A DNA stretch of 63,909 bases from a virus (Duplodnaviria > Caudoviricetes), in IMG/VR virus record IMGVR_UViG_3300017700_000715, positions 1 to 63,909 of that record. One strand, given 5' to 3'. This document shows positions 792 through 44,852 of the stretch, one piece after another. Every line of letters starts with the position of its first letter. Position 1 is the stretch's first letter. The notes under the pieces were generated by a model that worked only from the letters and a program-made list of their open reading frames with translations, made no database searches and was not told the origin of the DNA. Made by a program: the position numbers and the translations under genes.

Positions 792-1163
792 ATGCCTGGA
801 TATGTTCGTCGTGGTCGTTCGCTTGCCGCTCTTGGCTCGTTCATTCGCACTCAGCAGGTCGCTAAAGCTGTAACGGCTTTTGCAGGTGGTGGTAAAGCTA
901 ACGGCGTGCCTGTCACGTCTGGCATCACCATTGCAACTGTCGTGGCGACTGCTGGTGACTCTATTCTTCTGCCTTCACCCAAGGCTGGTGACGTTTATTG
1001 GGTCATCAATCGTGGCGCGAATGCTTGCCAGTTGTTTGCCGCTGGTACCGCGACGATTAATGGCGCTGCGACGGGTACTGGTATCTCTCTGCCTGCCGCG
1101 GATGCTGTTTTGTTGGCTTGTGTGGCTGATGGCGCTTACCTTGGTCAGATCATCACTGCTTGA
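792..1163 (+). CDS. Small Ala/Gly-rich putative virion accessory protein
   Basis: GGAG RBS; beta-rich composition; located in head module. Confidence 0.55.
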   Translation: MPGYVRRGRSLAALGSFIRTQQVAKAVTAFAGGGKANGVPVTSGITIATVVATAGDSILLPSPKAGDVYWVINRGANACQLFAAGTATINGAATGTGISLPAADAVLLACVADGAYLGQIITA

Positions 1164-1177
1164 TTTTAGGAGTCGTT

Positions 1178-5343: not shown

Positions 5344-5858
5344 ATGAGAAGCTTAGCGGAGTCAAAACCACCGTCGATAAAGTCGATAGTGTAGTTGACT
5401 CAGTTAGGAGTCTTGTTGAGCGTGAGATCCTTGTGGGTATTCCAGCATCAACAGCAGGAAGAGCAGTTGAGCCTGGAGATGAACCCATTGATAATGCTAC
5501 CATCGGATATCTGATGGAATTCGGTTCACCAGCTGCTAATATTCCTGAGAGACCTTTCTTGGTTCCAGGAGTTAGATCAGCTGAAGATGCTATTGCTAAG
5601 CGCTTAAAAAGCGCAGCAGAAGCTGCTCTTAAGGTTCAACCTGCGGCTGTAGACATTCAGATGAATGCGGCAGGTCTTATAGCACAAAATGCAGTGCGCC
5701 AGAAAATCACTGACGGTCCATTTGTGCCACTTGCACCAAGAACTCTTGCAGAACGCAAGAGTCGTGGCCGAACGGGCATTAAACCTCTAATCGATACTGG
5801 TCAACTTCGTCGGTCAGTAACCTACGTCATCAGGGACTCAGACGATGCCTCTTCTTGA
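5340..5858 (+). CDS. Neck/tail-completion protein
   Basis: EFG....IPERPFL and KPLIDTGQLRRSVTY motifs. Confidence 0.75.
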   Translation: MNEKLSGVKTTVDKVDSVVDSVRSLVEREILVGIPASTAGRAVEPGDEPIDNATIGYLMEFGSPAANIPERPFLVPGVRSAEDAIAKRLKSAAEAALKVQPAAVDIQMNAAGLIAQNAVRQKITDGPFVPLAPRTLAERKSRGRTGIKPLIDTGQLRRSVTYVIRDSDDASS

Positions 5859-6219
5859 CGTCACTGAAGTTCTTCTTGATCCTATGTTTCAAGACACCAG
5901 CCTTGTCGCTAGACGTGAGACTGAGACCGTTGGTCTTAACGGTATGGCAGTTTTCACACCCACAACGTTTAGCTTTGCCGGCGTTGTAGTTCAAGCTTCT
6001 GGAGAACAACTTCAAAGACTTGAAAATGGTACTCGACATGCTGACAGCATAGACATCTACACGTTGGAGAATTTGATAGACGGTCAGCAAGGTCTAACGG
6101 CTGACGTGGTCATATGGCAAGGTAATGAATACACCGTTGCCAAGGTACTTGACTGGTCGACTTACGGTCGTGGATTTAAGCATGTGATCTGTGATCTCCG
6201 CAACCTGATACCATCATGA
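5845..6219 (+). CDS. Head closure protein
   Basis: MPLLDVTEVLLDP start; D.V.W.G.EY.V motif; position. Confidence 0.65.
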   Translation: MPLLDVTEVLLDPMFQDTSLVARRETETVGLNGMAVFTPTTFSFAGVVVQASGEQLQRLENGTRHADSIDIYTLENLIDGQQGLTADVVIWQGNEYTVAKVLDWSTYGRGFKHVICDLRNLIPS

Positions 6220-22688: not shown

Positions 22689-22727
22689 TGGCCCGCCCTT
22701 CTTAATTGAGGGGCGGGCCATTTTTTT
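22687..22727 (+). terminator. Rho-independent terminator at the convergence of late and early arms
   Basis: aatggcccgcccttc/gaggggcgggccatt stem followed by a T7 run. Confidence 0.85.
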
Positions 22728-22730
22728 GTC

Positions 22731-23174
22731 TCAAAATTCTACATCGGGAGATTTAGACTTTGTTGGACTGTATCTGATACCATCAGGACCAATCCACTCA
22801 TGACCTAACAAGTTAGCGAAATATGTTCCAGGTTTTTCTGCCGCCTTCTCTGCGACAAGGGCTTCCAGCGCTTCGAGGCGGGAGGCGGCTTCGTGCAGGA
22901 GCGTTTTGGCAACCGGCGCTGTTTCCCATGTTGCGGCGGACGATCGCATAGCGCGACGCAGCCTCTTGACCATCTCCCCGCTCGTGCTCGCGACGGGCTT
23001 GGCGGCCTCGTAGGCGAGGATGGCGGCCCGTGTTGCTCCGCGCACTCTGCGGGCTGTCGCGGGGGAGGCGCCGGCCCACTGAATCATGCCGGCCATCCCG
23101 CTTGGGTCATCCCAGGATGACGAAACATCCCAAGCCTCTTTGCACGCCGCTTCCAGAGCCTTCTCGTCTATCAT
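22731..23174 (-). CDS. Hypothetical protein (GC-rich, prophage-type)
   Basis: ATG 23174 overlaps upstream stop (ATGA). Confidence 0.55.
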   Translation of the reverse strand: MIDEKALEAACKEAWDVSSSWDDPSGMAGMIQWAGASPATARRVRGATRAAILAYEAAKPVASTSGEMVKRLRRAMRSSAATWETAPVAKTLLHEAASRLEALEALVAEKAAEKPGTYFANLLGHEWIGPDGIRYSPTKSKSPDVEF

Positions 23175-28203: not shown

Positions 28204-28460
28204 TAGAATAGACTCAGTTGAACAGGTTTCTGGGGCTTTACTTTGGCTGCAACTTTAGTCTTTACTTCACGCTCACGCCCAATGCCTAGGTATTCACGTT
28301 CCTGTCGGCATTTTCGCAAGTAATCTTCCATCTTGCCTTCTTTTACAGCGACACACATTTCATGACAACCTTGCCCTATTCTTCCATCTTTATAATAAAT
28401 GTAGAAGAATTCAGCTCCGTTGGCTTTAACTATCTGTGCGTCAGAATAGACCTGTGACAT
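28203..28460 (-). CDS. Hypothetical protein ending in a clamp-binding motif
   Basis: C-terminus KPVQLSLF; start inferred at ATG 28460. Confidence 0.6.
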   Translation of the reverse strand: MSQVYSDAQIVKANGAEFFYIYYKDGRIGQGCHEMCVAVKEGKMEDYLRKCRQEREYLGIGREREVKTKVAAKVKPQKPVQLSLF

Positions 28461-30468
28461 GAGGAACAACCTCTCCCCAACTGGATCCAAAATCAGGTGA
28501 AGCATCAAATGGAATGGTCGTCTCAATAGCGTGCTCCATGATCTCTTGGGTCCTGATTAACTCATGATCACTGAAAACGGTTCTACCGAGCTCGTCGTAC
28601 ACTTGTACTTGGGGAGTAAGACCCTCACCATCAAGAAGAATGATGCACTTCTTAATCTGATCGGCGGCGGAACCTTGGACCAAAGCATTCAATGCCTTGT
28701 GTACCATGGCACGGGCCACATTCTCAGCACCCCACTTCTCACAAGCTTCTTCATATGTGGGAACGGGTTTATTCCAAATGAAGGCATTGTCATGTTTGTC
28801 GGGAGAATATGACTTCTCCCACATGCTGAACCGTCGCTTACGACCGAGAATGGTCATGATCCATCCACGCTTGGCGACCATCTCCATACACTTCTCTTCG
28901 AGCTTCTTGACGTAGGGCACACCGTCATGGTAGGCTCTAAAGATCTCGTCCGCGACCTTTCTTGTGAGGTTCAATTTCTTGGCAAGCTTAGCCTTGCCCA
29001 TACCGTAAGCAGATCCAAGGTTAATGTCCTTGGCATTGCGCCGACCGATATCTTTACCTGACTTGTCCTTGACAAGATCAGCCGTCATCTGGTGATAGTC
29101 AATCTTGGGATTGTCGAGATACTTCTGTCGAGCCTCGGCTGCACCTGGTAAATCTAGCAAATAGGCGTAATGCAAGAGGATCCGAGGTTCTTGCTGGCTA
29201 TAGTCCCACTTGCCCCACTTTCCACCTTCGTCTGGTATGAATAGAGACCGGACCTTTTTGCCCCACAAAGGTGAACGCGTCGGAATGTTTGTGAGATTTG
29301 GCTTAGATGACGCAATACGACCTGAACGAGTGCCTTTGCTCTTGCCACCATCTTCATCTTCTTCCATGGCACGTAATTGATGCCAATTAGGATGAAGACG
29401 ACCTTTGACATTCTTCTCAAGGATCATGCCCTCAACGAAGTCGCACCGGATCTTATGAAGTGTACGCCATTCGTTGAGTTGCAGACAAAATGGATCAGTC
29501 TGAATTTCAAGCCAATCACCATTGACCGATAGATTGTACTCACCAGTTTTCTGATTGATGGTGCCGGTCGTGGGAAGTTCTAGACCACGAGCTTGGAGAG
29601 CTGCTATAAGGTGTTTGTTAGAGCCGAGATTGATCCGGTATCCAGCCATATCGGCGAGGACATCATAGATTGAGTCCTCAGCAGATTTCATCTCGTTGCT
29701 GAGTTGCTCAGCACGGTCCAAATCTACTCTAATTCCACGAAGGCGCATTTTGAATAGAATAGGCTGAAGCTGCTGCTCCAACAAGAAGATGTCCCAGACT
29801 TCATCAGCCTTTAGAGCCTGTTCTTGCTCAAGGAAGATCATGACTGGGTTTTCAGCGTCATCTTCAGCATATTCACCAACGTATTCTGATGGCAAATACT
29901 TCATATGCTTTTTTGGATCCGCTCCATAACAGGCTGCGGCTTCTCGAAGCTTTGCTTCATTCTTGCCGTATCCTAGGTAATCTTTAGAAAGCACATCAAG
30001 GCTATAACCATCAGCCTTTTCTTCATTGAGCAATGGCTCCGCGACCTGAATATCACAGAGATCACCAAAGATCGGGATATCAAGTGAGTTTAACGCTTCA
30101 AGTTCATAGGTAAGATTTGCGCCGCATTTCGGCTGCCTTGCATCTTTGAGATGATGCTTGATATATGACACGACTTGGCTCTTGTCAAGGTTTCCCGAGA
30201 CATGGCCAAATGGCAGATATATCTTACGGCTGTTTTCATCAGCCATTGAGATGCCAATGACTTCAGCATCTCCACGAATAAAACCCGGACCTTGTTTGTC
30301 AAGGTTTGGGTCGTTTGTTTCAACGTCGATGCCGATATATTCGGACCTAGAGAAGTCAGGCCACTGCGTAGAGTCAGTGGGTACCTGCCAAGTCTTATCA
30401 GGTGTAAACATAGGAAGTTGGTTTACGTCACTGATGGTTTTGGATCCACGTCTTCCGGGTCTACGCAT
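28441..30468 (-). CDS. Family A DNA polymerase with 3'-5' exonuclease domain
   Basis: IDVET exonuclease I; SGRIASSKPNLTNIP; DYSQQEPR (A); RRNAKDINLGSAYG (B); QVYDEL (C). Confidence 0.92.
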   Translation of the reverse strand: MRRPGRRGSKTISDVNQLPMFTPDKTWQVPTDSTQWPDFSRSEYIGIDVETNDPNLDKQGPGFIRGDAEVIGISMADENSRKIYLPFGHVSGNLDKSQVVSYIKHHLKDARQPKCGANLTYELEALNSLDIPIFGDLCDIQVAEPLLNEEKADGYSLDVLSKDYLGYGKNEAKLREAAACYGADPKKHMKYLPSEYVGEYAEDDAENPVMIFLEQEQALKADEVWDIFLLEQQLQPILFKMRLRGIRVDLDRAEQLSNEMKSAEDSIYDVLADMAGYRINLGSNKHLIAALQARGLELPTTGTINQKTGEYNLSVNGDWLEIQTDPFCLQLNEWRTLHKIRCDFVEGMILEKNVKGRLHPNWHQLRAMEEDEDGGKSKGTRSGRIASSKPNLTNIPTRSPLWGKKVRSLFIPDEGGKWGKWDYSQQEPRILLHYAYLLDLPGAAEARQKYLDNPKIDYHQMTADLVKDKSGKDIGRRNAKDINLGSAYGMGKAKLAKKLNLTRKVADEIFRAYHDGVPYVKKLEEKCMEMVAKRGWIMTILGRKRRFSMWEKSYSPDKHDNAFIWNKPVPTYEEACEKWGAENVARAMVHKALNALVQGSAADQIKKCIILLDGEGLTPQVQVYDELGRTVFSDHELIRTQEIMEHAIETTIPFDASPDFGSSWGEVVPHVTGLF

Positions 30469-30962
30469 CAGGTTTTCATCCGCTCTTGCTTAATTCGTTC
30501 CATCAATTCAATGGTGAATTGAGATTGAAAATGTTCCCAAGTTCTTCTTTTGCCTTGTGCACCAAGCCATAACACCTTAGACTCGTTGTGTGGATATTCT
30601 TCAAGAAACACAATCCGTTCACAACCTGTATTCAGTAGCGACTTGATGCATTGCATGCATGGCGAGGCTGTGCAATAACATGTCCTAATATCTTCGACAT
30701 CATGGCATTGCACAAGGGCATTCATCTCAGCATGAGAAGCTAGACAAGCATCCAATCCACTACCAGAAGGCAGATCAGCACCAGGACACTTATGATCAAT
30801 ACAATGTCTAACACCTCTTGGCACTCCATTCCTACCCACACCAATGATGTGGTTAAGATGATTGGTCAGGACACAGCCGACCATACGCCGAAAGCAGGTT
30901 GAACCTGCTCCGGCGATAATGGCTTGCGACATAAAGATCTCATCATTATGCATTCGCTGCAA
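30468..30962 (-). CDS. dCMP deaminase family protein
   Basis: STC.RR.VG, G.NG.P.G, HAE.NA, SPC..C; start uncertain (TTG 30962 or ATG 30953). Confidence 0.88.
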   Translation of the reverse strand: MQRMHNDEIFMSQAIIAGAGSTCFRRMVGCVLTNHLNHIIGVGRNGVPRGVRHCIDHKCPGADLPSGSGLDACLASHAEMNALVQCHDVEDIRTCYCTASPCMQCIKSLLNTGCERIVFLEEYPHNESKVLWLGAQGKRRTWEHFQSQFTIELMERIKQERMKT

Positions 30963-31749
30963 GACGAAAGCCCTCCACAACACCATCACCTTTGGCGTGA
31001 CCCCAAAGCCAATGGATCAGATGCTCAGGTTCACCAAACCAGTCCAGCGGATCAAAGGCGGGATATGCCGCTGGCATGAAATCATCGGCAAGAATGAGCT
31101 TGACCTTCTCAAGGTTTGACTCATACAGATGCTGAGAACCTGCCGTCAACGTGATGTTGCCCAACTTCACAGTGAGACCAAGGTGGCGAAGATAAAGCGC
31201 CAAATACCCCGACAACATCGAGAAGTTAAAGATGTCATAAGGCCAGCCAAGGTAGGCATCAGACGACCGCATGGTGTCAAAGCAATAAAGCACACCATCT
31301 CGAATGAGCCACTGAACAGAGATAGTGCAAGGTACATCCTTGGTCTTGGGTGGGTTCTCACGCCAGATATTGATGACGGCTTGACGACTGCTTGGATCCT
31401 CTACCAAAGCTCGTGCAACACCGGCAATCTGGTCAACGATCTTAGGTCCGTAAGACCCAAAGAACCTGATACCATCATCACTGAACTTGGAGATCTCTTT
31501 GCTGAATGGAGCAATCTGATCGACCTTGTTGTCTCCAGACAGGATCCAGGCAGCCTCCGCTGCCATGAACTTGTAGCCAATCTTTCGGAAAGGCATGGTC
31601 ATAATGGGGTAAGCCATATTGACCTTGGACTGATATCCCATCATCTCGAGACAGGGCAGTCCACGGGGCGCCGTCTTGTTGCCATACTTGACGATGTCAC
31701 TGGCAACAGACAGCCAGGCTTGGTTGGCAGTGTAGGCTGGCTTAAACAC
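30946..31749 (-). CDS. Divergent thymidylate synthase homologue, likely dCMP (hydroxy)methylase
   Basis: SRQAV..IW, DVPCT, MRSSD..LG.PYD, S.HLY; Asp in place of the ThyA specificity Asn. Confidence 0.8.
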   Translation of the reverse strand: MFKPAYTANQAWLSVASDIVKYGNKTAPRGLPCLEMMGYQSKVNMAYPIMTMPFRKIGYKFMAAEAAWILSGDNKVDQIAPFSKEISKFSDDGIRFFGSYGPKIVDQIAGVARALVEDPSSRQAVINIWRENPPKTKDVPCTISVQWLIRDGVLYCFDTMRSSDAYLGWPYDIFNFSMLSGYLALYLRHLGLTVKLGNITLTAGSQHLYESNLEKVKLILADDFMPAAYPAFDPLDWFGEPEHLIHWLWGHAKGDGVVEGFRLAANA

Positions 31750-32698
31750 TGGCGAGTCCTTTCAAGAACATAAGATCGTCTAGCTCTTTGGGAGCAAACC
31801 GACGATACCACTGAGGATGTTTTATCATGTCATGATCGATTTGGAAACGATTAAGTGCAGCAGAAGCACTGTGACCAAGGGCTACAACTGAAGATGGTTG
31901 AAGTTCGTCAACATATCTGTCAAGTGGAACTTGAATACCCTCAGGAGCATGAGCATTTGCCCACGCAAGTTTGTCTTCACCGATACCCAATTCAGCTAGG
32001 GCATTAGTGATCCACAGTGAGCTATTGCCATACTCGAAGAATGGCCACACCTCACGACGGGTCTTAGGATTGCTCTGGTCACCCACCAACAGTATCTTGG
32101 GCTTCCAGCTATTGCCGGCTACAAGCCTGTTCTTGGGATCTTCCCACTCTGGGGCGACAAGATCGGTGACAGAAAAGGCATGATCAAGCAGCCACCGACA
32201 GTAATCATCGAGAAATCTTCCATGGGTGTCAAGGTCGTAGTGGACAGCATCAAATCTCGGCCCAAGCGACTTGTAGAGTTCGGCATACCCATCATATACA
32301 CCTTGCATGGTGGTGTACATTTCATCACGAGACTCCTTGAGTTTCTCGAAGCGCTCATAATATGCCTTCTGATCCGACGGGATACAGAAGACATAGGTCA
32401 CACCATGTTTCAACCCGACCCGATCAAGCATGCGACCACCGAGAGGCCATTTGCTGCCTCCTCGAAACACATCTGCATAGATCTTTTCTGAAGCCCACCA
32501 ACGATCCAGAATGACTGGTTGGTGTTGAGCATACTTAAGACAAAGTTCAATTGCTGCTGTGTGGTAATCAAACATACGATCTTTAAATCTATATGTTAAA
32601 TGAATATATTTTGAGTTTCCAAAATATTCAGCTAATTTATTACAGAGCGTTGTTTTGCCACTTCCATCTGGACCTTCCACGCAGATTATTGGATGCAT
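31742..32698 (-). CDS. dNMP kinase fused to a UDG-superfamily-like domain
   Basis: EGPDGSGKTT and LDR at N-terminus; ILLVGDQSNP...PF...N...VALG...HPQ at C-terminus. Confidence 0.72.
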   Translation of the reverse strand: MHPIICVEGPDGSGKTTLCNKLAEYFGNSKYIHLTYRFKDRMFDYHTAAIELCLKYAQHQPVILDRWWASEKIYADVFRGGSKWPLGGRMLDRVGLKHGVTYVFCIPSDQKAYYERFEKLKESRDEMYTTMQGVYDGYAELYKSLGPRFDAVHYDLDTHGRFLDDYCRWLLDHAFSVTDLVAPEWEDPKNRLVAGNSWKPKILLVGDQSNPKTRREVWPFFEYGNSSLWITNALAELGIGEDKLAWANAHAPEGIQVPLDRYVDELQPSSVVALGHSASAALNRFQIDHDMIKHPQWYRRFAPKELDDLMFLKGLASV

Positions 32699-33327
32699 TT
32701 GTTCATTTCCTCTCTTAGCTCTGAAGATAGAGACGATTTAAGTGGATACTTAGCTCGCCAAGCCATAGCCTTTATAGCTCTGTCTTTCTTGTATTTTAAA
32801 CTGCTAAACTGATTATAATACAAAAACCATAGTAAATAAGCTGCCGTTTCACCCGCTAATCTAGCGTATAGTATGGTTTTTCTAGGAACAATGGTAGGTG
32901 ATTTTAATCCAAGATTTTCTACAAAATCCCTGAATTTATCTATGTCTTCTTTTCTCCCACATAAATTCATATGAGGACCTGCATTATCATAAGCTACTAT
33001 ACAACCATCTCCATCTATCATTCCTCTCCAAAAATGCTTACTTATATAGATATCATCTCTGATTTCATTCTTAAGACCTAATTTTATTAGATTGGGTTGA
33101 GAAGTACCTATGGAAAACACTTCTTGAATTCCATAGGTACTTGATTTTACTGCGTGCGCTACGTTATCTTTTCCAATATAATGAGCAAACGCTTCAACGG
33201 GCTCCTTGTGTTTCTGAGCAAAATACAAGGTTCCATTTGATGATATGTGACCGTCAGCTTGAAGATAACCAAGCCAATACAAGTCTTCATCAGATAATGG
33301 ATCGTTAAATCGTTTTATAGCACTCAT
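32686..33327 (-). mobile_element. Free-standing double-motif LAGLIDADG homing endonuclease gene
   Basis: YWLGYLQADG and FWRGMIDGDG; visibly AT-rich compared with flanks. Confidence 0.82.
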
Positions 33328-33611
33328 CGTTTCGTTCGTTCCGTCCCGAATTCAGTTTCCAAGAGAAGCATATAATGCTCCTCATATTTGGCGCGCTTTT
33401 CTGCGTCGCATGTCTGCATTACCTTAGACGCCAATCGTGCCGTCACGACTAATGCTGCTCTGTCGCAAAGAAAATATGACCCAGCTAAAAGGCCCAAAGC
33501 CTTAAACATCTGCTCCACAATTTCAGTGAGAACTTCTTCATGGGCTGACTCAGACTTACGGTTGCATTGGCACAGAAAAGCCGAGTCTTCAGTTTTGATT
33601 GGCGTGGACAT
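33324..33611 (-). CDS. Hypothetical protein
   Basis: ORF coupled to both neighbours. Confidence 0.45.
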   Translation of the reverse strand: MSTPIKTEDSAFLCQCNRKSESAHEEVLTEIVEQMFKALGLLAGSYFLCDRAALVVTARLASKVMQTCDAEKRAKYEEHYMLLLETEFGTERTKR

Positions 33612-34095
33612 TGTCTTTCACCAGGTCACTGTGATCGGGGGCAGTCCATCCTTCGGGTTTGACCACATCGTAGGCCGAGCCACGCTTGCTGTCAGAGATC
33701 TTTGCAACCCGCACCTTGGCCATATTGGCGGCATGCACACGATGCCAGGCTTCCTTGAAATCAAAGCCATGAATGTGTGAAGTGCCCAATACAACGTACA
33801 CTAAGTCAACGAGACCGTCAAGCATTTCCTCAAGGTGCTTGGCCACTTTCTCTTGGTCAAGCTTCTCCAGTCCCAACTCGAACTGGAGGCTGACAGCGTG
33901 GTCCTCGTACTCCCGCAGCTCCTCCTTCATGAAGTCGCGACGGAACCTCGAGAGTTCGGGCTCAAGACTCCGGGGTTTTCCGTCGTACTCGAGACCAAAC
34001 TTCTTGTGAAATTCCTCGATGTCCTTGACAGGGTCAAAGGGTTTGCCGTAAGGCGCCGTCATCGCTTCTATGTAGATATCCCTCTCTTCGCTCAT
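33589..34095 (-). CDS. MazG-like/all-alpha NTP pyrophosphohydrolase
   Basis: EFH.KFG, EEL.E, D.LVDLVYV..GT, VH.ANMAK, KPEGW.AP. Confidence 0.82.
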   Translation of the reverse strand: MSEERDIYIEAMTAPYGKPFDPVKDIEEFHKKFGLEYDGKPRSLEPELSRFRRDFMKEELREYEDHAVSLQFELGLEKLDQEKVAKHLEEMLDGLVDLVYVVLGTSHIHGFDFKEAWHRVHAANMAKVRVAKISDSKRGSAYDVVKPEGWTAPDHSDLVKDNVHANQN

Positions 34096-34107
34096 GATAG
34101 TCTCCTG

Positions 34108-34410
34108 TTACTTTAATTGTTGATGCCAGGTTTTCAAACGCATAGCTTTTGATTTCGCTCTATCCATGATCGCTTGTCTATCGAGTCCAAAATGATCTAT
34201 GTTCAGCTCTATATTTGCTAGAACGTCGGCCATTTCTTCTGATAACCAAACATGATTTATTTTACCTGTCTCTGGATCCCGTTCATCAATGCCTTGGATC
34301 ATGCATCTCGCAGCAGCTGAACCACATTCGTTAAGTTCTTCTAACAATTTTCCCAGATGCTTGAGATTTATTGGAGAAACGTCAGGATGCCACGGATCAT
34401 TATCAGACAT
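34108..34410 (-). CDS. Second MazG-like pyrophosphohydrolase
   Basis: KLLEELNE...EEMADV pattern. Confidence 0.6.
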   Translation of the reverse strand: MSDNDPWHPDVSPINLKHLGKLLEELNECGSAAARCMIQGIDERDPETGKINHVWLSEEMADVLANIELNIDHFGLDRQAIMDRAKSKAMRLKTWHQQLK

Positions 34411-34421
34411 GGATGCAATCC

Positions 34422-35393
34422 TTAGTTGTTGTGCTGCGGGTAACCTTCATAGGAGGCAAGCTGCTCCCACTTCTCAGAACTTGTCCAAGGCTTGGAAACC
34501 TCAGACAAGGGCTTGAACTTTCGGGCGTAATTGTCCTTGGCAAGTTTCAAGATCCAGATATTGTTGCGGGCATAGGCCGGCATCAATGGAGCAAAGATGG
34601 TCGCCAGAACATTGGTATCGTAGTACTTGTAGAGGCGTTCATACACCTCCTTACTGCCGGGGATCTCCTTGAACATTACGTCCCGGTAATCTCGTATAGA
34701 GGCGAACGTGCCATAATTCTCGGCAATCTCGAAGCCAAGATCCTCGATCATCGCGCCGAGTGCATCACGCTTCATCTCGTTGACATGGTTATCGGCGGCG
34801 CCAACGGACGAGTCATAGCAAGGCGTTGAGATAAACGCGACAGAGTCCTCACCATGATGGGCCTTGGTCTGCTCCATGATGAAGCCCATCTTGTTGAGCA
34901 TGGCCCGAGCATGGCTCGGCTCTACATGCTCAAGCACTTCAAAGCAGGTAATGATGTTCGGGAGATCGTGCTCGCCTTCTTCGACATCGCCGTCGATATA
35001 GAGAACCGGCTTGACGGTGTCATCGATGATCTCGGGCTGACGGACAAGCACCTGCTTGGAGGCGAAGTCGACGGAGCCATAAGCGGACAGCGGGAACTTG
35101 CCCTTGCTGAACATGTCCGTCTTGAACTTGGCCGATTTGTTGTAGTCAAGGCCGATGTAGTCCGCGACAATGAAACGGTTCGAGTAGAGCATCTTGGCAA
35201 GGGGCATGTCGACGCCGCAGCCAATGTCGAGGACTCGTGCGGTCTGATACCGGCCACTTGTGCCCAGTTTGCGGGCCACGTGTGTCCAACGGAAAACGTG
35301 TGCGATATAGTCGCGATGTATCATAATCCGTTCTTCCGCGGTATCAATCGACAGGTGTGTGTTGTCGATGCTCTTGCCTCGAACATTGGCCAT
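34422..35393 (-). CDS. Class I SAM-dependent methyltransferase
   Basis: VLDIGCG, YIGLD, FEVLEHVE, FISTP; no DPPY/NPPY or motif IV-type PC context of DNA methyltransferases. Confidence 0.8.
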   Translation of the reverse strand: MANVRGKSIDNTHLSIDTAEERIMIHRDYIAHVFRWTHVARKLGTSGRYQTARVLDIGCGVDMPLAKMLYSNRFIVADYIGLDYNKSAKFKTDMFSKGKFPLSAYGSVDFASKQVLVRQPEIIDDTVKPVLYIDGDVEEGEHDLPNIITCFEVLEHVEPSHARAMLNKMGFIMEQTKAHHGEDSVAFISTPCYDSSVGAADNHVNEMKRDALGAMIEDLGFEIAENYGTFASIRDYRDVMFKEIPGSKEVYERLYKYYDTNVLATIFAPLMPAYARNNIWILKLAKDNYARKFKPLSEVSKPWTSSEKWEQLASYEGYPQHNN

Positions 35394-35434
35394 ACTGAAA
35401 TCCTCAATTTTGATGGAAAAGCGTTACAATCTCC

Positions 35435-35463
35435 ATAATAGAGGATTATCTAGCTAAAGTAAA
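35435..35463 (-). promoter_or_regulatory. Promoter for the methyltransferase/nucleotide operon
   Basis: TTTACT-N17-TATTAT. Confidence 0.7.
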
Positions 35464-35488
35464 CTCAAATAGTAGCCGGGCTGTGGAT

Positions 35489-35516
35489 AAAGAAAAAGGG
35501 CGCCGAAGCGCCCTCT
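35489..35516 (-). terminator. Rho-independent terminator
   Basis: agggcgc-ttcg-gcgccct followed by a U-rich tract on - strand. Confidence 0.8.
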
Positions 35517-35518
35517 TA

Positions 35519-35809
35519 TCATCCAACAAAAATGCATTGACCTGTATATTTTCCTTCATCATCACAGGTTAGTGAAATTTTGATTTTGCAGTGACTGAAA
35601 TGGTCTCCACGACCAAAAATATCGCCAACAAATTTAAGAGCTGATTTTTGAGAAACCTCGATGAGGCAGGACATATCGTTATAGCCTCTCTGCTCTTCAA
35701 CATTGCTGTAAAGAAATGTTCCGCCGCGAACAAAATGCGTAACACCAGCGCGATAAGAACGCTTGATGAGCTTGATGGCTTCTTCCTGGGTGACGTAATG
35801 ATCGATCAT
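35519..35809 (-). CDS. Hypothetical early protein
   Basis: ATCAACCACGGAG leader/RBS before ATG 35809; own promoter and terminator. Confidence 0.65.
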   Translation of the reverse strand: MIDHYVTQEEAIKLIKRSYRAGVTHFVRGGTFLYSNVEEQRGYNDMSCLIEVSQKSALKFVGDIFGRGDHFSHCKIKISLTCDDEGKYTGQCIFVG

Positions 35810-35834
35810 GGTGTGTCTCCGTGGTTGATGATCC

Positions 35835-35863
35835 TTTGTAGAGTGTCCCAACGGAGAAGTAAA
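35835..35863 (-). promoter_or_regulatory. Early-type promoter
   Basis: TTTACT-N17-TACAAA followed by the conserved leader. Confidence 0.55.
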
Positions 35864-35885
35864 CAGCTAAATGAGAAATTCATGA

Positions 35886-36015
35886 ATAAAAAGAGGGCCC
35901 AAAGCATTTCTGCCTTGGACCCTCCCTCCAGCCGCTCAGCTCGTGCTGATGACTGCTCCCTCGCGGGCGGTCAACCCACCGCGGAGACGAATGGGTTGAC
36001 CATCCGCTCCGGGGC
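35886..36015 (-). ncRNA. Candidate structured RNA ending in a GAAA-tetraloop terminator
   Basis: About 17-bp stem 35963-35979/35991-36007, nested hairpin 35929-35955, terminator 35888-35924; mismatches mostly resolve as G-U on - strand. Confidence 0.45.
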
Positions 36016-36366
36016 TCAGGCCGCCGCCGTCTCGTCAACCGGCGCATCCGCCGGCACATCCTTGGCCTTCTTGCCGCGCTTGGGCTTCTCAGCAGCGCCC
36101 TCAGCGGCTTCCTTAGCGGGCTTCTCGTCGGCGCCCTCGATGGCGATCAGGCCATCCTCAACCATCTTCTTGGTGTAGAACTTGAAGACGCGGGCGGCGC
36201 CCTGGCGGGACTTGAAGCGCTCGTCAGCATCGATCTTCTCGAAGAGATCGCTCAGCGAGGTAGCAGTGCCGACACCGGTCGTGTCGTTCAGAACGGCCAG
36301 CATGGCCTGGATCTGCGGGGTCTTGACTTCGTCGCCGGGAACCTTGAGAAGGGTGACGGTCTTCAT
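36016..36366 (-). CDS. Winged-helix-like protein, paralogue 1, with Lys/Ala-rich tail
   Basis: TPQIQAML...KSRQGAARVFKFY..KM...GLI; AGGAG RBS; strongly biased codons. Confidence 0.65.
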   Translation of the reverse strand: MKTVTLLKVPGDEVKTPQIQAMLAVLNDTTGVGTATSLSDLFEKIDADERFKSRQGAARVFKFYTKKMVEDGLIAIEGADEKPAKEAAEGAAEKPKRGKKAKDVPADAPVDETAAA

Positions 36367-36420
36367 GGTGGAACTCTCCTGGGTTAAGGTTTAGAGCGTC
36401 CTTGCTCATTACCTGGGTTG

Positions 36421-36449
36421 ATAGTAGTCTCGAACTCAAAGCTTGTACA
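36421..36449 (-). promoter_or_regulatory. Promoter
   Basis: TGTACA-N17-TACTAT. Confidence 0.7.
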
Positions 36450-36474
36450 CCCATAAAGTGTGCCAAGCTTATGT

Positions 36475-36810
36475 TTATTTATGAGTCACTCCAAGGTCAA
36501 AATGACCATCTGACCCAAGCTTGGCATATTCAATCTCATAGTCATGTTTCTCGATGTGACGAAACATTGCTCTGGCTTCGTGGAGTGCTATCACCATCCT
36601 AAGATGGTAGATGATCTGGGCATTACCATCCCAAGGCACTTCAGAGTCGAGAAATTTCACGCGATCAATGAGAGCCCGACAGACTTCCTGATTAGTAGTG
36701 CCAGGCTTTGGTTCGTGAGGAGAACGCTGCACGAACTGTAGATGATGATAAGCATCACCATCAAGCTGCTTCAAAGCATAGGTATGACCGGGTTTAATGA
36801 CTTCAGGCAT
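36475..36810 (-). CDS. Tad1-like (Thoeris/CBASS signal sponge) protein
   Basis: GH.Y...LQF...GTTNQEV..ALIDR..FL....P...N..II.HL...I....AR...R resembles the Tad1 pattern as I recall it. Confidence 0.55.
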   Translation of the reverse strand: MPEVIKPGHTYALKQLDGDAYHHLQFVQRSPHEPKPGTTNQEVCRALIDRVKFLDSEVPWDGNAQIIYHLRMVIALHEARAMFRHIEKHDYEIEYAKLGSDGHFDLGVTHK

Positions 36811-37030
36811 GGCTAAATCCTCTATGAGGGGTGAGACATAGCATTCATTCGCCAGCGGCTATGCCTCAGATGAAGCTGGCTTATTGTAGGCCCATTAGTG
36901 ACGGCCCATTCTCCGCCTCCTTAGTTGTCCGACAGGCGACCGTGCGTCGTCGGCTCAAGGCCTGGCCTACAGTTGGCTCAGGCTCGGCTCATGGAGGATC
37001 TCCGGCCCCAAAGGGCCGGAGTCTCTGTTC
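36811..37030 (-). ncRNA. Candidate structured RNA with H-type pseudoknot
   Basis: Stems 36833-42/36858-67 crossed by 36851-56/36875-80; 36885-92/36964-71; hairpin 37000-37021. Confidence 0.45.
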
Positions 37031-37627
37031 TCACTCCTCGTCGTCGGACTCTTCGTCCTCGGACTCATCAACCTCAGACTCATCACCCTCTTCATCGGAC
37101 ACGCCGACAGCATGGATGACGCCGAGAACTTCCAGAGCACGCCGATAGTAGGCGAAAAGCTGGTCATCCTCGATCTTGGACTTCACGAAGCCAAGGTTCT
37201 TGGCATAACCGGCGATATCAGAACCGATCATGGCATCACGCGGCGAGAAGATCTTCGCTGAGGCGAGATACTCAAGGAGACCACGCACCTGCTTCGGGGC
37301 GGCATTAAACGCCTCCTTGTATCCATCAGTCCAGGTCGCCGGATTTCCGACAGCCTTATTCAGGTAGTAGAACTTGTGCTTGAAGGGCTGGTTGCCAGAC
37401 AGGTTGACACCATGACGGAGAACCTTGCCTTCAGGATCACGCCGACGAAGCGACGGATAGCGACGGACAACATTTTTGATGGAGTCCTTGGTGATGGACG
37501 GCGACTCAGCCTGCAGCTGCATCTCGTGAACCGAGACGGCATTCTCGAGCTGGTCCTTGGTCATCTCGTGACGACCAGTGATGTTGTAGAGTTTCGCCTT
37601 AGCGAGCAATTCGGTCTTGGTTGCCAT
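37031..37627 (-). CDS. Rho-N (helix-extension-helix) domain plus winged-helix-like paralogue 2
   Basis: TKTELLAKAK.YNITGR..MTKDQL N-terminus; PKQVR.LLE.L...KSK.....LFAYY...L..LGVI; acidic tail. Confidence 0.65.
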   Translation of the reverse strand: MATKTELLAKAKLYNITGRHEMTKDQLENAVSVHEMQLQAESPSITKDSIKNVVRRYPSLRRRDPEGKVLRHGVNLSGNQPFKHKFYYLNKAVGNPATWTDGYKEAFNAAPKQVRGLLEYLASAKIFSPRDAMIGSDIAGYAKNLGFVKSKIEDDQLFAYYRRALEVLGVIHAVGVSDEEGDESEVDESEDEESDDEE

Positions 37628-37676
37628 GATCTTCTCTCCGCTCTTGCGTCGCTCGTTATGTTCGACGCGATGATTA

Positions 37677-37705
37677 TTTATATGCCGCGCTACCGCCCAT
37701 GTACA
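37677..37705 (-). promoter_or_regulatory. Promoter
   Basis: TGTACA-N17-TATAAA. Confidence 0.7.
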
Positions 37706-37800
37706 TAGCTATTTTCAAAATTTGCGAAAATAATTTGCGTCCATTTGGGAGGGTATATAGAGAGCGTTTTCCACAAAGAACGCCAAGCCTGCAAATTGCA

Positions 37801-37828
37801 TTGTACTTTACCCGTTAATGGGTATAAT
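37801..37828 (+). promoter_or_regulatory. Promoter of the primase operon
   Basis: TTGTAC...TTACCCGTTAATGGG-TATAAT; GGAG RBS downstream. Confidence 0.6.
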
Positions 37829-37875
37829 GTCAAAATTCAGGCCGAAATTGCCTGTCCATCAGAGCGGAGATTGAG

Positions 37876-38571
37876 ATGCAAACCTATGAGGAGCGACCCT
37901 CAGGTCAATGGGTCGTGGTGCTTTTCCCACAGAACAAAATCAAGGATTATTCGGACGTTCGCCTGTTTCCGACCATGGATGCTGCGACGAACCGATATGC
38001 CAAGGCTACCCGGACTCAGCACATCTACTCCAGCCCCGGAGAGATGGTGCATCGCCACGGTGGTCCGGTGCTTCACAAGTTTCTCGTGGATCTGGTCGAG
38101 CAATATGACCGACCTGCTGAGCGCTACAAGACTTGTGAAATTGGTGATGGCGAATTGATCGCGAACACCGAGATCCACTCCAGCAAACGAACTGAAGTGG
38201 CCGATGAGCTTTGGCGTGTGTGCCAACTCATTGGAGACAAGACTCTTGGTATCGTCTCAAGCGGTGATGACGACGACAAATTTAAGATCCGCATCGATCG
38301 TATGACGACGCCTGAAGGTCGTGAGATCTGGAGCAAGTTCCCCAAGCAGGCACGTCAGATCATCGAAGCGTTGATCACAAATGCCAAGTCCATTATGACT
38401 GAGTCTGAACTCCAGAAGCTTGTTGCCAAGCTTGTGGCTGATCGAGTGATGAAGACCAAGCAGGATCCATGGAGGATCTTTGCTTATTATGCCCCAATGT
38501 TTGGTGATCATGCCTTGCTGTATTACCCGGGGAAGCGCCACAAACTAGAAGACCATGAAGACAATATCTGA
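37876..38571 (+). CDS. Hypothetical protein with C-terminal winged-helix-like paralogue 3
   Basis: PKQARQIIEAL...KTKQDPWRIFAYY. Confidence 0.65.
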   Translation: MQTYEERPSGQWVVVLFPQNKIKDYSDVRLFPTMDAATNRYAKATRTQHIYSSPGEMVHRHGGPVLHKFLVDLVEQYDRPAERYKTCEIGDGELIANTEIHSSKRTEVADELWRVCQLIGDKTLGIVSSGDDDDKFKIRIDRMTTPEGREIWSKFPKQARQIIEALITNAKSIMTESELQKLVAKLVADRVMKTKQDPWRIFAYYAPMFGDHALLYYPGKRHKLEDHEDNI

Positions 38572-38593: not shown

Positions 38594-40840
38594 ATGTCAA
38601 ATAAGCAGATAACCTGCGAAGAGATTGCGGTCAGTCTCGGGGGCGGTAAGGAAAAGCGAAATGGCGATGGATCATGGAATACCCGGTGTCCGGCCCATCA
38701 TGATGACGGCCCATCACTTTCAGTAAGTGAGAAAAACGGCAAGATCCTTGTGCGTTGCCATGCTGGCTGCACACAAGACGCCGTCATCAGTGCGTTACGT
38801 GAACGAGGCCTGTGGGTTGCCAAAACCAAGACGTGGACATCCAAGCCATTTGCGCCAAAGGGTTCAACGCCGCCAACGGCTATGGACCATCCCAAGTATG
38901 GCAAGGCCTCCAATAGCTGGGTTTATCGAAACCGCCAAGGCCTGATCGCCGGTATCATTTGCCGGTTCAACTACCAAGATGGTGACAAGCTCCGTAAGGA
39001 GATCTTGCCCATGACGTGGTGCATGTCCGACGAGGGCGAGCATCGTTGGTGGTGGAAACAGATGGCGGAACCTCGATGCCTCTACAATGAGCATCGACTG
39101 GATGAGCATAAACCCATCCTCATTGTCGAGGGCGAGAAGGCCTGTGATGCAGCCCAGAAAATCGTGGGCGATCAATATCTCTGCATGACATGGCCAGGTG
39201 GTAGTAAAGCCGTCAAACGGGCTAACTGGAAGCAGTTGGTCAATCGTGACATTATCATCTGGCCTGATGCTGATGAGCCCGGAGATATGGCGGCAAGATG
39301 GCTTGCTGAGATCCTGATCGAGGAAAATGCCCGATCAATTCGTCGTGTGATGCTACCTGAGGGATTGCCTGAAGGTTGGGACATTGCTGACGAGATGCCT
39401 GCGGGCCTTACATTTGACCCCTTAACACTTATTCGTACTGCGCCATCATACAAGCCTCAAGGCGACTCGGTCGTTGAGAAGTTCAATCGTGAGTTTGCGC
39501 TCGTCATGATTGGTGGCCAAGCCGTGGTCCTCCAGGAGGAACGCAAATACAGTGATGGTAAGGTGGATCTCAAATATCTGTCCGTCACAGCCTTCAAGGA
39601 GTTTTACGGAAATCGGCAGGTCATACAAGGCAAGCAACAGATACCGGAAAGCTCATATTGGATTAAGCACGAAGAACGGAGATCATATACCTCCGTCGTG
39701 TTCGAGCCAAACAGTAATAATAAGCAGGCGTATAATCTATGGCGGGGTTTCTCTTGTGAGGCTGATCCCACTGGAGATTGGTCACTTCTTGAGAACCACA
39801 TCGAAGAGAATTTGGCCCGAGGAGATCAATCTTTAGCTCACTGGATCATGGGATGGTTTGCGCACATTGTGCAACACCCAGATGAGAAGGTTGGTACATC
39901 TCTCGCGTTCCGAGGAAAGCAGGGCACAGGCAAGACGATCATTGGCAAAGCCATGGGTGCACTATATCGCCCACATTATGTCTTGGTTGAAGACTCTCGA
40001 TATGTGCTGGGCAACTTCAACAGCCACATGGCGTCAACTCTATTGCTTCATGCTGACGAAGCATTCTTCGCTGGTGATCCAAGACACGTCGGGCGACTAA
40101 GAGGTATGGTCACGTCCGACAGTCACCGGATCGAGATGAAGGGCAAGGACTCCTTCGAAGTCAACAACTATATGAGGCTCTTGGTCACCTCGAACAATGA
40201 CTTCATTATGCCTGCTGCCTTCGAGGAAAGACGGTTCGCGGTTCTGGATACAGGTGAAGGCCGAATTCAGGACAAGAACTATTTCAAGGCGATGTGGAAG
40301 CAGCTAGAGAATGGTGGCTTCGGTGGATTGCTTCATCATCTACAATCATTTGATCTTTCAAATGTAGACATTGGCGTCATTCCAGTCACAGCTGCTCTTC
40401 AAGAGCAAAAGCTATTCAGCCTTGACGGCGTCATGCGTTTCTGGTTTGAACGGCTATGGCAAGGTCAGGCCTTGCCTCATCTTGAGAAAGACCTATGGCC
40501 TGACTTCATAGCCGTTGAAGATATCTACGACGCTTATCTGAAGCGGTCAGAAGCCTGGGGTGAACGTCGTCGCGTGGACATTCCGACCTTTGGGAAGGAG
40601 CTCAAGAAGATCTGGCCCGGTACCGTGCTCAACAAGAAGCGTGTCAGGATCAAGCGTATGGATCGCTATGGACAGCTCAATGAGCAAGAAGTAATGGCCT
40701 ACAAGCTTGACCACCTGTCAATCCATCGCAAATGCTTTGCAGAGATTTGTGGCGCTGTTGATTGGCCAGCAGAGGGTGAAGAGGCTCCTGATCTTCCTAA
40801 GTTCAAGGAGACTGAGAAGCAGGATGATGTTCCATTTTAG
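38594..40840 (+). CDS. Primase-helicase (zinc finger, TOPRIM, SF3-like P-loop helicase)
   Basis: CPAH.D..PSLS...CHAGC; IVEGEKA...WPGG...WPDAD; GKQGTGKT, ADEA, TSN. Confidence 0.88.
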   Translation: MSNKQITCEEIAVSLGGGKEKRNGDGSWNTRCPAHHDDGPSLSVSEKNGKILVRCHAGCTQDAVISALRERGLWVAKTKTWTSKPFAPKGSTPPTAMDHPKYGKASNSWVYRNRQGLIAGIICRFNYQDGDKLRKEILPMTWCMSDEGEHRWWWKQMAEPRCLYNEHRLDEHKPILIVEGEKACDAAQKIVGDQYLCMTWPGGSKAVKRANWKQLVNRDIIIWPDADEPGDMAARWLAEILIEENARSIRRVMLPEGLPEGWDIADEMPAGLTFDPLTLIRTAPSYKPQGDSVVEKFNREFALVMIGGQAVVLQEERKYSDGKVDLKYLSVTAFKEFYGNRQVIQGKQQIPESSYWIKHEERRSYTSVVFEPNSNNKQAYNLWRGFSCEADPTGDWSLLENHIEENLARGDQSLAHWIMGWFAHIVQHPDEKVGTSLAFRGKQGTGKTIIGKAMGALYRPHYVLVEDSRYVLGNFNSHMASTLLLHADEAFFAGDPRHVGRLRGMVTSDSHRIEMKGKDSFEVNNYMRLLVTSNNDFIMPAAFEERRFAVLDTGEGRIQDKNYFKAMWKQLENGGFGGLLHHLQSFDLSNVDIGVIPVTAALQEQKLFSLDGVMRFWFERLWQGQALPHLEKDLWPDFIAVEDIYDAYLKRSEAWGERRRVDIPTFGKELKKIWPGTVLNKKRVRIKRMDRYGQLNEQEVMAYKLDHLSIHRKCFAEICGAVDWPAEGEEAPDLPKFKETEKQDDVPF

Positions 40841-43184: not shown

Positions 43185-43499
43185 CTAGTCCACACCCCAT
43201 TGCTTGTAAAGAGCTTGAAGGTTCTCACCAGTCTTCTTGGCTTGTTCTCGAGCCGTAGCTCTCATGTACCAGCGCTTCTTCTTGAATTTGATGGACTCAG
43301 CGTTCACATGGTAATAGCGCTTCTTTCGCTGAGCCTGGGCCTTACGATGATTGATCACTACGCCTGGGGCTATAGTACTTTCATAGGTCGTGAAACGCTT
43401 CTTACAGACAAGACACTCACGTCGACGTCTGAATACATTATCGGGTGCCTGACGTGAGTCAAGCACCCGGGTCTCTTCATTGCATGATGTGCACTTCAC
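43185..43499 (-). CDS. NrdR-like zinc-ribbon protein without an ATP-cone
   Basis: MKC..C....RVLDSR......RRRREC..C..RFTTYE. Confidence 0.8.
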
Positions 43500-44741: not shown

Positions 44742-44852
44742 GTAAAGAGAATAGTCATGTCTGTCTCGAGCTGATCGTTGTTGAAATCCTTAGCTCGAGA
44801 TATCCAGACGATTGTCATCATCATGGAAAACAGACAGAGGACTATTTTCATG

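Follow-up and report, generated by a model that had tools for sequence, protein, structure and literature searches.

A shared, probably winged-helix domain in three paralogous genes beside the modification and replication block of an uncultured phage

What do the small genes between the modification operon and the primase gene of an uncultured phage encode, and to what do the structured RNAs lying among them belong? The question is raised by a window of 63,909 bases, the whole of virus record IMGVR_UViG_3300017700_000715 (Caudoviricetes), which has direct terminal repeats and is rated 100% complete. Three genes are at issue: A (36016-36366, minus strand, 116 amino acids), B (37031-37627, minus strand, 198 amino acids) and C (37876-38571, plus strand, 231 amino acids), with a further gene, T (36475-36810, minus strand, 111 amino acids), between A and B. 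A preliminary description, made from the letters of the sequence, had taken A, B and C for paralogues of an undescribed winged-helix-like family, each with its own promoter, and the long base-paired stretches after A and B for possible partner RNAs. The genes and the motifs quoted for them were confirmed in the list of open reading frames (ORFs), and gene-family annotation agreed that the locus lies between the hydroxymethyl-pyrimidine/methyltransferase operon and the primase gene.

Relationship of A, B and C and their wider family

Compared directly by BLASTP, the three proteins resemble one another weakly (E = 0.001 for B and C, 0.68 for A and B, 27 for A and C). Metagenomic relatives, each protein itself included, numbered 15 sequences for B, 12 for C and 6 for A. 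A first-pass hhalign comparison joined B and C with a probability of 89% (E 2.3e-6) and gave only 1.3% for A with B and 0.6% for A with C, though in the correct register. The bridge between them is an A-type protein of contig G002 (129 amino acids, TTRQDPARILSFYQPQLVEKGII), which was matched both by the C-family profile (E 1.6e-5) and by the A-family profile (E 6.7e-11). When viral contigs were scanned with the C-family signature, many proteins of 100-130 amino acids were recovered that combine the layout of A with the motif of C (NRFYSFTLD...TPQI...LKTRQSSWRIFSYYRANMISDGFL).

A domain-only alignment of 14 sequences (A4) formed the basis of hidden Markov models (HMMs) from which one family at a time was left out, searched against all ORFs of the window defined from stop to stop and 50 or more amino acids long (537 segments). 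The model without the A family recovered A at E 1e-9, or 1.9e-7 when the bridge was removed too; that without the C family recovered C at E 6.8e-15, and that without the B family recovered B at E 0.015, the weakest of the three. In every run A, B and C were the top three, with the next ORF at E 0.2-1, and the alignment was built with all sequences present, which may slightly favour the family left out. The same searches of the 537 segments revealed no fourth copy of the domain. Deep hhalign comparisons gave 99.4% (E 3.9e-21) for the C family (A2) against the family of A and the small proteins (A8), and 96.7% (E 4.3e-10) for the B family (A12, thirty members) against A8. Because the leave-out models and the deep profile comparisons agree, these analyses indicate that A, B and C have in common a single homologous domain some 85 residues long and are true paralogues, as had been claimed, with B the most diverged of the three. 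A chance likeness of three short motifs was considered and is ruled out by the same two lines of evidence.

The domain occupies residues 1-80 of A (36127-36366), 84-176 of B (37100-37378) and 134-221 of C (38275-38538). Its predicted first element is a short strand of hydrophobic character (A, KTVTLLK; B, KFYYLN; C, KFKIRID), followed by a first helix that opens at P-x-Q, the only invariant pair, a second helix often containing E.EL, and a third helix bearing the signature (S/T)(K/R)QDPWRIFxYYR..L...G, after which comes a hydrophobic strand.

The additions to this domain differ between the three proteins. The tail of A is of low complexity, composed of Lys, Ala, Pro and Glu, with a net charge of 0. 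In B a tail of 22 residues with a net charge of -16 (37034-37099) comes straight after the domain, and between the N-terminus and the domain lies a conserved basic segment, RRYPSLRRRD..GK..R.G.NLSGNQPF. The N-terminus itself (37547-37615) resembles the Rho_N/HeH family (PF07498) at 13.6 bits (E 0.0055), below the cut-off of 24.9 bits. C is distinguished by an N-terminal region of about 130 residues that is confined to the C family, and by an invariant YYPGKRHKLEDH peptide in its tail. The differing additions that had been described therefore stand for the Lys/Ala tail of A, which is neutral, the acidic tail of B and the long N-terminus of C, while the Rho-N domain of B is found only below threshold.

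None of A, B and C belongs to a Pfam, PHROGs or NCBIfam family, nor does any of these collections hold a model of the domain. Searched with A4, a set of 1.84 billion cluster representatives yielded 910 matches at E<=1e-3, of which 132 reached E<=1e-10. One listed representative, an S-layer/MucBP protein matched in 11 short stretches (P0048), is probably a false match; the other 143 comprise 33 of up to 140 amino acids, 44 of 141-200, 62 of 201-300 and 4 longer, with the domain mostly C-terminal. Among the 144 top representatives scanned, 135 are without a Pfam family at E<=1e-3. In one genome per species of 185,579 prokaryote species, a pattern scan found two loci, both on short contigs of metagenome-assembled genomes, which speaks for rarity rather than absence, since the pattern is narrow. 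The literature, searched at the level of abstracts, yielded no description of the family, a scope that does not exclude prior publication. By these searches the family is large, unnamed and almost only on viral contigs. It is thus undescribed in the sense of lacking a model in the three collections, as had been proposed, but it is far from private to this locus.

Clustered paralogues are usual in the family, mostly two or three to a genome. In five complete records of 41-45 kb the copies, lying within a few kilobases, number 2, 2, 2, 2 and 3, and among closer kin, all of them incomplete records, there are 3 copies in G001, 3 in G002, 2 in G009, 2 in G010 and 1 in G011. Tandem arrays also occur, with four domain copies in P0036 (397 amino acids) and two each in P0101 and P0123. 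A GRP AT-hook core flanked by Lys or Arg directly precedes the domain in 7 of the 143 representatives, and a fusion to Rho_N/HeH passes the cut-off in two B-type proteins, P0146 (29.1 bits) and P0160 (25.6 bits). In P0161 the winged-helix family Penicillinase_R is matched over its cut-off on the domain itself, and P0036 reaches 27.2 bits against the HARE-HTH cut-off of 25.9 bits, no single stretch passing alone. Below threshold, Pfam winged-helix matches among 40 small members were ANAPC2 in three and MCM_C, HTH_51, F-93_WHD and Trans_reg_C in one each, mixed with unrelated noise. The ESM Atlas neighbours of the model of A were PriA 3'BD/WH, DUF742 and RecQ, at TM-scores of 0.42-0.50; for C the Atlas gave no usable feature match, and two Atlas rows name PF28729. 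The AT-hook, HeH and tandem-array contexts, together with the weak winged-helix matches, suggest a divergent winged helix-turn-helix fold for the domain, which would bind double-stranded DNA.

Several known families were tried and set aside. HARE-HTH (PF05066, cut-off 25.9 bits) has no match in the window at E<=10 and, of the 144 representatives, only the one in P0036. Linker histone H1/H5 (PF00538, cut-off 22.4 bits) likewise has no window match at E<=10. DUF5343 (PF17278, cut-off 27 bits) does not match in the window, and a relative (P0037, locus L022) reaches 21.6 bits (E 2.8e-4). Matches in the PDB to calmodulin, parvalbumin and ribosomal protein S9, all at E >=0.1, look like chance.

Linkage with the modification and replication block

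On the 3' side of A, on the minus strand, lies a block (28441-35393) that encodes a methyltransferase, two MazG-like proteins, a 95-amino-acid ORF, a LAGLIDADG endonuclease, a Tmk-like protein, a thymidylate-synthase-like (TS-like) hydroxymethylase, a dCMP deaminase and PolA. Scanning viral contigs with A9, a consensus-like sub-alignment, recovered 52 loci of the domain family, and the 51 new ones were searched with the window proteins, the comparison covering the block apart from the 95-amino-acid ORF and the endonuclease. A homologue of the methyltransferase is present in all 29 loci of at least 13 kb, which are not 29 independent events because the loci are related to one another; identity to the window's methyltransferase is 41-47% across the loci, and the 12 loci without a match are all shorter than 13 kb. 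The same 29 loci hold homologues of the 168-amino-acid MazG in 28 cases, of the TS-like hydroxymethylase in 26, of PolA in 26, of the Tmk-like protein in 24 and of the dCMP deaminase in 19. No homologue of the primase, the SNF2 helicase, T or the second MazG-like gene (34108-34410, minus strand) was found in any of them. As a rule the block genes follow the family member on its own strand at a distance of 1.5-5 kb, with the order reversed in L041 and L042.

The sole GenBank record with a family member, found with a consensus-like member, is MW202510.1, a podovirus of 41.7 kb according to the record. There the order is methyltransferase, NTP pyrophosphatase, thymidylate kinase, pyrimidine hydroxymethylase, dCMP deaminase and DNA polymerase, which is the order in the window downstream of A. 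In the same record (L027) a hypothetical coding sequence is annotated on the minus strand at 1158-1907, over the family member at 1566-1847 on the plus strand, and is probably a wrong-strand gene call. The block is common to the myovirus-type window and to contigs of about 41-45 kb, one of which (L018) encodes a T7-type head-tail connector. On account of the linkage in the 29 loci and in MW202510.1, the family is placed by its gene neighbourhood in the replication and nucleotide-modification block and not in the virion block.

In closer kin the neighbours of each gene have been kept. G001, in which A, B and C are 91%, 85% and 77% identical to those of the window, has the order primase-C, then, in the opposite direction, B-T-A and the methyltransferase. 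In G009 the order is primase-C, then A, a homing endonuclease and the methyltransferase, with neither B nor T between. G010 has methyltransferase and A-type gene, then C-type gene and primase, and G002 has the methyltransferase, an A-type gene, 518 nt, a C-type gene and the primase, with a B-type gene 15 kb off. In all four, A keeps to the side of the methyltransferase and C stays paired with the primase, and to this extent the arrangement that had been expected to persist in relatives does so. The synteny fits a role on modified DNA without demonstrating one. Since the window also carries a canonical ThyA, the pathway could be either of a hydroxymethylcytosine (hmC) or of a hydroxymethyluracil (hmU) type.

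The remaining features of the genome set the locus in context. The virion genes are of myovirus type (major capsid, sheath, baseplate J, portal and terminase), and the window also encodes a family-A DNA polymerase, an SNF2 helicase and Pam3 gp32-34-like proteins. Its nucleotide-metabolism genes include, beside the canonical ThyA, the second, divergent thymidylate-synthase-like gene and the dCMP deaminase, and with them are found the thymidylate-kinase-like gene, the two MazG-type pyrophosphatases and the methyltransferase, which is of class I. The latter (34422-35393, minus strand) has UbiG as its best NCBIfam match, at 21.5 bits and far under the cut-off. Between it and A is a 110-amino-acid ORF (35519-35851, minus strand), and the 95-amino-acid ORF of the block (33324-33611, minus strand) has no family match. 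On the other side of the locus, a D5/P4-type primase-helicase (38594-40840, plus strand; Pfam DUF5906 and Toprim, PHROGs DNA primase) starts 22 bases past C in the same orientation. Neither the locus nor gene B gave a blastn or tblastn match among 50,697 phage records. Of the sequencing runs, just one, from a freshwater metagenome that may be where this DNA originates, contains most of the stretch; a second freshwater run has only 0.06 of the sampled words, and RNA runs are absent from the list.

Some observations concern the block and its surroundings in their own right. LAGLIDADG homing endonuclease genes occur at 32686-33327 (minus strand) in the window and at 860-1516 (plus strand) and 5482-6171 (minus strand) of L025 in G009, and their insertion sites within the modification and replication block differ between the two. 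A G002 gene for 329 amino acids (L012:652-1638, minus strand) has a C-terminal domain of the uracil-DNA-glycosylase superfamily (Pfam UDG, E 1.9e-5); its counterpart in the window (31742-32698, minus strand, 318 amino acids) is recognisable only by the P-loop start of a thymidylate kinase. In the nucleotide-metabolism region, a small ORF (43185-43499, minus strand) contains an NrdR-type zinc ribbon (Pfam Zn_ribbon_NrdR, E 3.7e-14). The cumulative GC skew reaches its minimum at 34-38 kb and gene orientation flips at about 37.7 kb, beside the primase gene, making 34000-38000 a candidate replication-origin region; convincing families of direct repeats or iterons were not found in 35400-38000.

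Structured RNA and control regions of the locus

The preliminary description had A and B each followed by a structured non-coding stretch, and folding bore this out (z -7.0 after A, z -3.3 after B). The 3' region of A (35852-36015, minus strand) has a minimum free energy of -83.6 kcal/mol, and the opposite, plus strand folds more weakly (-66.5 kcal/mol, z -4.3). An inverted repeat was found in the region. A long hairpin at about 35963-36007 is followed by a second at about 35885-35933, in which GGGUCCAAGGCA and UGCUUUGGGCCC enclose a GAAA loop and are succeeded by the U-run UCUUUUUAUU. This second hairpin, GC-rich and followed directly by a U-run on the sense strand, was not listed by a simple terminator scan and is probably an intrinsic terminator. 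G001 matches the window at 146 of 146 bases from the stop codon of A to the end of the U-run; identity is 81% over the surrounding 5 kb and 86% in gene A itself.

Stable stretches are also found 3' of A-type genes elsewhere, with no sequence shared with the window: in G009 (z -7.2) a long hairpin plus terminator, as in the window, in G002 (z -4.9) a stretch of 518 nt, and in G010 (z -7.1) one of 289 nt. For the 120 bases 3' of a family gene at 29 other loci, which are interrelated, the median z was -2.4, compared with -0.95 for 145 control ORF ends that include possible non-genes (Mann-Whitney p 4e-5). Short-word blastn with the window stretches found G001 only, so that no RNA sequence common to the lineages emerged. 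Rfam covariance models gave no match at the gathering threshold in the whole window and, at E<=5, only chance-level snoRNA and miRNA matches far below gathering.

A block of about 75 nt is common to G010 (L013:4027-4116, minus strand) and G002 (L008:1019-1109, minus strand), in each case 3' of the A-type gene. It consists of GGAACGYGGAGACGGAAGUCGCRCGGCA, then a hairpin of 19-21 bp with the loop CACGUGC, then UUGUUGUAUC. A small hairpin in it has one compensatory pair, and the arms of the long hairpin differ in sequence between the two records, in an alignment that has indels and leaves the long stem not fully paired. The block remains 3' of the A-type gene despite an inversion of the segment relative to its neighbours.

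Within the window, the stretches after A and B are the most stable per nucleotide (-0.51 and -0.41 kcal/mol on the sense strand, respectively) when set against the 19 other intergenic stretches folded. Strong structure alone is nevertheless not special, because two other intergenic stretches reach z -6.4 (44742-44852, minus strand) and z -5.7 (22689-22812, plus strand); in these, both strands beat their shuffles, and they are probably bidirectional terminators where operons converge. The stretch after A is best read from its sequence as the 3' stabiliser and terminator of a separately transcribed gene, an anatomy that high expression of A would fit.

The stretch between B and T (36811-37030, minus strand, 220 nt) differs in its layout. 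It begins with a hairpin (37000-37021) right after the stop codon of B, and because this hairpin has no U-run, B and T may be co-transcribed. Four more hairpins follow inside a closing helix that pairs AUCCUCCAUGAG (about 36988-36999) with CUCAUAGAGGAU (about 36817-36828). As CUCAUAGAGGAU holds the Shine-Dalgarno sequence of T, the GAGGA eight bases before the AUG would be covered by pairing with an anti-Shine-Dalgarno-like AUCCUCC. RNAalifold with G001 kept 60 pairs and broke none, with one compensatory change (U-A to C-G) and one change from G-U to G-C. Between the window and G001, 3 of 120 paired columns differ, compared with 18 of 101 unpaired ones (Fisher p 9.4e-5), a contrast inflated by the prediction of the structure from the same two sequences. 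A metagenome scan for A-family loci gave G001 only, and covariation in the two window RNAs thus rests on one close relative. Because the closing helix covers the ribosome-binding site of T, the preferred reading of the stretch is a leader that controls translation of T, not a partner of B. Among the loci compared, T occurs only in G001. Its description as Tad1-like found no support: Pfam at E<=1 gave only DUF816 (E 0.16), PHROGs phrog_2428 at E 0.009 (of unknown function) and NCBIfam nothing, the presence of a Tad1 model in the Pfam copy being unconfirmed, and tblastn gave no match in the 50,697 phage records.

B and C diverge from a putative control region at 37628-37875. A minus-strand TTGACA-17-TAAAGT at 37833..37805 overlaps a plus-strand TATAAT at 37823-37828, and a second conserved block, GCATATAAATAATCATC, is found at 37669-37685 (minus strand). 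These promoter-like blocks are kept in G001, within a region 78.5% identical overall, and the sites may act as promoters. GCATATAAATAATCATC was also considered as a promoter word shared across the phage and rejected, since it occurs once in the window. Ahead of both A and B, words of the form TGTACA-N17-TA..A. can be read from the sequence. The scan gave 6 promoter-like sites, compared with 2.6 +/- 1.7 expected. Because this is only mildly above chance, own promoters for the three genes are plausible rather than established, and the claim that each possesses one goes no further than the level of consensus.

Possible roles and known systems

Taken jointly, the evidence is read as a set of diverged paralogues built on one DNA-binding module, accompanied by cis-acting RNA elements and with labour divided between them, a reading given a probability of roughly 55%. 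In this scheme A would be the plain form of the family with a flexible Lys/Ala/Pro/Glu tail, made from its own transcription unit ending in a stabiliser hairpin and terminator, and would either bind DNA generally or shape its architecture, or else regulate the phage DNA as it replicates. C would be co-transcribed with the primase-helicase and would use its shared domain to place the N-terminal region on DNA in or close to the origin or replisome, and B would add the HeH DNA-binding motif, the basic segment and the acidic tail. The structured stretches would be cis-acting elements of mRNA, a 3' stabiliser and terminator after A and a Shine-Dalgarno-sequestering leader before T. Several points weigh against this scheme. 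A is not basic (net charge -1, with its neutral tail) and B as a whole is acidic (net charge -7), for which reason a simple histone-like coat fits poorly. B is included by profiles only, with a leave-out HMM E of 0.015. Model confidence in the ESM Atlas is poor (pLDDT 0.55 and 0.54 for A and C, respectively), nothing in the window is matched at E<=10 by the HMMs for HARE-HTH, Linker_histone or DUF5343, and PDB searches with profiles A1, A2, A3 and A8 returned nothing better than E 0.1. Furthermore, the syntenic loci are probably related phages.

The domain might instead tell hydroxymethyl-pyrimidine-derived phage DNA from host DNA and coat, mark or regulate one of the two, as a functional analogue of SPO1 TF1 on hmU DNA. 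The linkage to the methyltransferase-MazG-Tmk-hydroxymethylase-deaminase-PolA block, invariant for the methyltransferase in 29 of 29 loci of at least 13 kb, and the movement of that block with the family between the myovirus-type window and contigs of about 41-45 kb speak for it. Passages of the respective sources report that hmU helps TF1 to recognise SPO1 DNA specifically (PMC10531801) and describe winged-helix domains that sense DNA adenine methylation (PMC11037411; bioRxiv 10.1101/2023.06.07.544091). The co-location may, however, only reflect an early/middle replication module shared by related phages, the canonical ThyA leaves both the hmC-type and the hmU-type pathway possible, and the window proteins lack membership of HARE-HTH; as a whole such a reader, and with it the TF1-like role, is rather unlikely. 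A fuller form of the idea is a phage 'chromatin' or reader set for hypermodified DNA, its paralogues split between coating or marking (A), loading of the replisome (C) and displacement of host factors by the acidic tail (B). In this form the domain would recognise hydroxymethyl-pyrimidine-derived bases, perhaps finished by the methyltransferase, and expression would be set by the adjacent conserved RNA structures; the proposal in this form is best regarded as unlikely.

A domain that binds protein rather than DNA would make the three adaptors of RNA polymerase or of the replisome, with B resembling the delta subunit of Gram-positive RNA polymerase and C an accessory subunit of the primase-helicase. 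The tail of B, at -16 over 22 residues directly after the domain, would suit this, as would the fact that neither A nor B is basic overall, the invariant YYPGKRHKLEDH peptide of C, the co-oriented adjacency of C to the primase in each of G001, G002, G009 and G010, and the passing of the HARE-HTH cut-off by P0036 (27.2 against 25.9 bits). On the other hand, the HARE-HTH HMM matches nothing in the window, the 25 commonest of the 31 families weakly matched by the 40 small members do not include HARE-HTH, DNA is what the AT-hook, HeH and tandem-array contexts indicate, and the family genomes of about 41 kb are without a homologue of the window primase (0 of 29 loci), and adaptors are considered unlikely. 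The partner RNAs of the preliminary description would have A and B bind the stretches after their own genes, in autoregulation or in ribonucleoprotein particles. Strong structure after A-type genes in G001 (the same sequence), G009, G002 and G010, the median z of -2.4 against -0.95 at the 29 other loci (p 4e-5), the identity of 146 of 146 bases with G001 over a background of about 81%, and the hairpin block of about 75 nt shared by G002 and G010 are what this would lead one to expect. Yet the stretch after A, a hairpin and then a hairpin with U-run, has the anatomy of a terminator, that after B belongs to T, whose ribosome-binding site its closing helix covers, and no sequence or Rfam family is common to the lineages. 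The two intergenic stretches at z -5.7 and -6.4 have no such gene beside them, and the controls may include non-genes while the loci are interrelated. Partner RNAs are therefore considered very improbable, and the description of the two stretches as such was given up in favour of the cis-acting elements of the preferred reading.

What sets the family apart is its size, together with its strict synteny and clustered paralogues, and its members are probably winged-helix DNA-binding proteins. Most early and middle genes of phages are without known function, and here one type of them turns out to form a large, coherent family with a fixed place by the DNA-modification and replication block and a tendency to clustered paralogues. 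If the proteins do bind DNA, and above all if they separate modified from unmodified DNA, they would provide a handle on how base-modified phage genomes are organised, replicated and transcribed by their phages, and on the recognition of modified DNA in vitro. A profile of the family could annotate hundreds of viral ORFs now labelled hypothetical, and in the leader of T an uncultured phage offers a compact example in which control of translation by RNA structure can be tested.

Among known systems, the closest likeness in layout is to winged helix-turn-helix domains such as those of BlaI/MecI (Penicillinase_R), the MCM C-terminus, APC2/cullin and Sso10a, with about 85 residues, a predicted order of strand, three helices and strand, and a third helix that is the most conserved; P0161 passes the Penicillinase_R cut-off on these same residues. 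Unlike the named winged-helix families, no protein of the window reaches any family threshold, and to our knowledge the (S/T)(K/R)QDPWRIFxYYR signature and the invariant PxQ are absent from those families. HARE-HTH domains, present in the RNA polymerase delta subunit, ASXL proteins and the N-termini of restriction enzymes, are likewise small winged-helix modules beside DNA-modification genes, if the fold proposed here is right. The delta subunit of Gram-positive bacteria consists of a HARE-HTH domain followed by an acidic tail, and B too has a domain and then an acidic tail; the difference is that the Pfam HMM of HARE-HTH matches nothing in the window at E<=10 and scores in 1 of 144 representatives. 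With linker histones H1/H5 there is the likeness of a globular, here putatively winged-helix-like domain joined to a tail rich in Lys, Ala and Pro in A, P0055, P0072 and P0137, and the unlikeness that the linker-histone HMM matches nothing and the tail of A is charge-neutral. TF1 of SPO1, which prefers hmU DNA, is a phage-encoded DNA-binding protein, as A, B and C may be, and belongs to a phage in which a pyrimidine is replaced by its hydroxymethyl derivative; it differs in having the HU fold, which is unrelated to the family domain. As for the RNA elements, the stretch after A resembles intrinsic terminators and 3' stabiliser hairpins in having a hairpin and then a U-run, and the stretch between B and T resembles Shine-Dalgarno-sequestering leaders in that its predicted long-range helix covers the GAGGA. 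Compared with ordinary terminators and leaders, both are unusually long and stable, and the one after A is identical to G001 over 146 of 146 bases.

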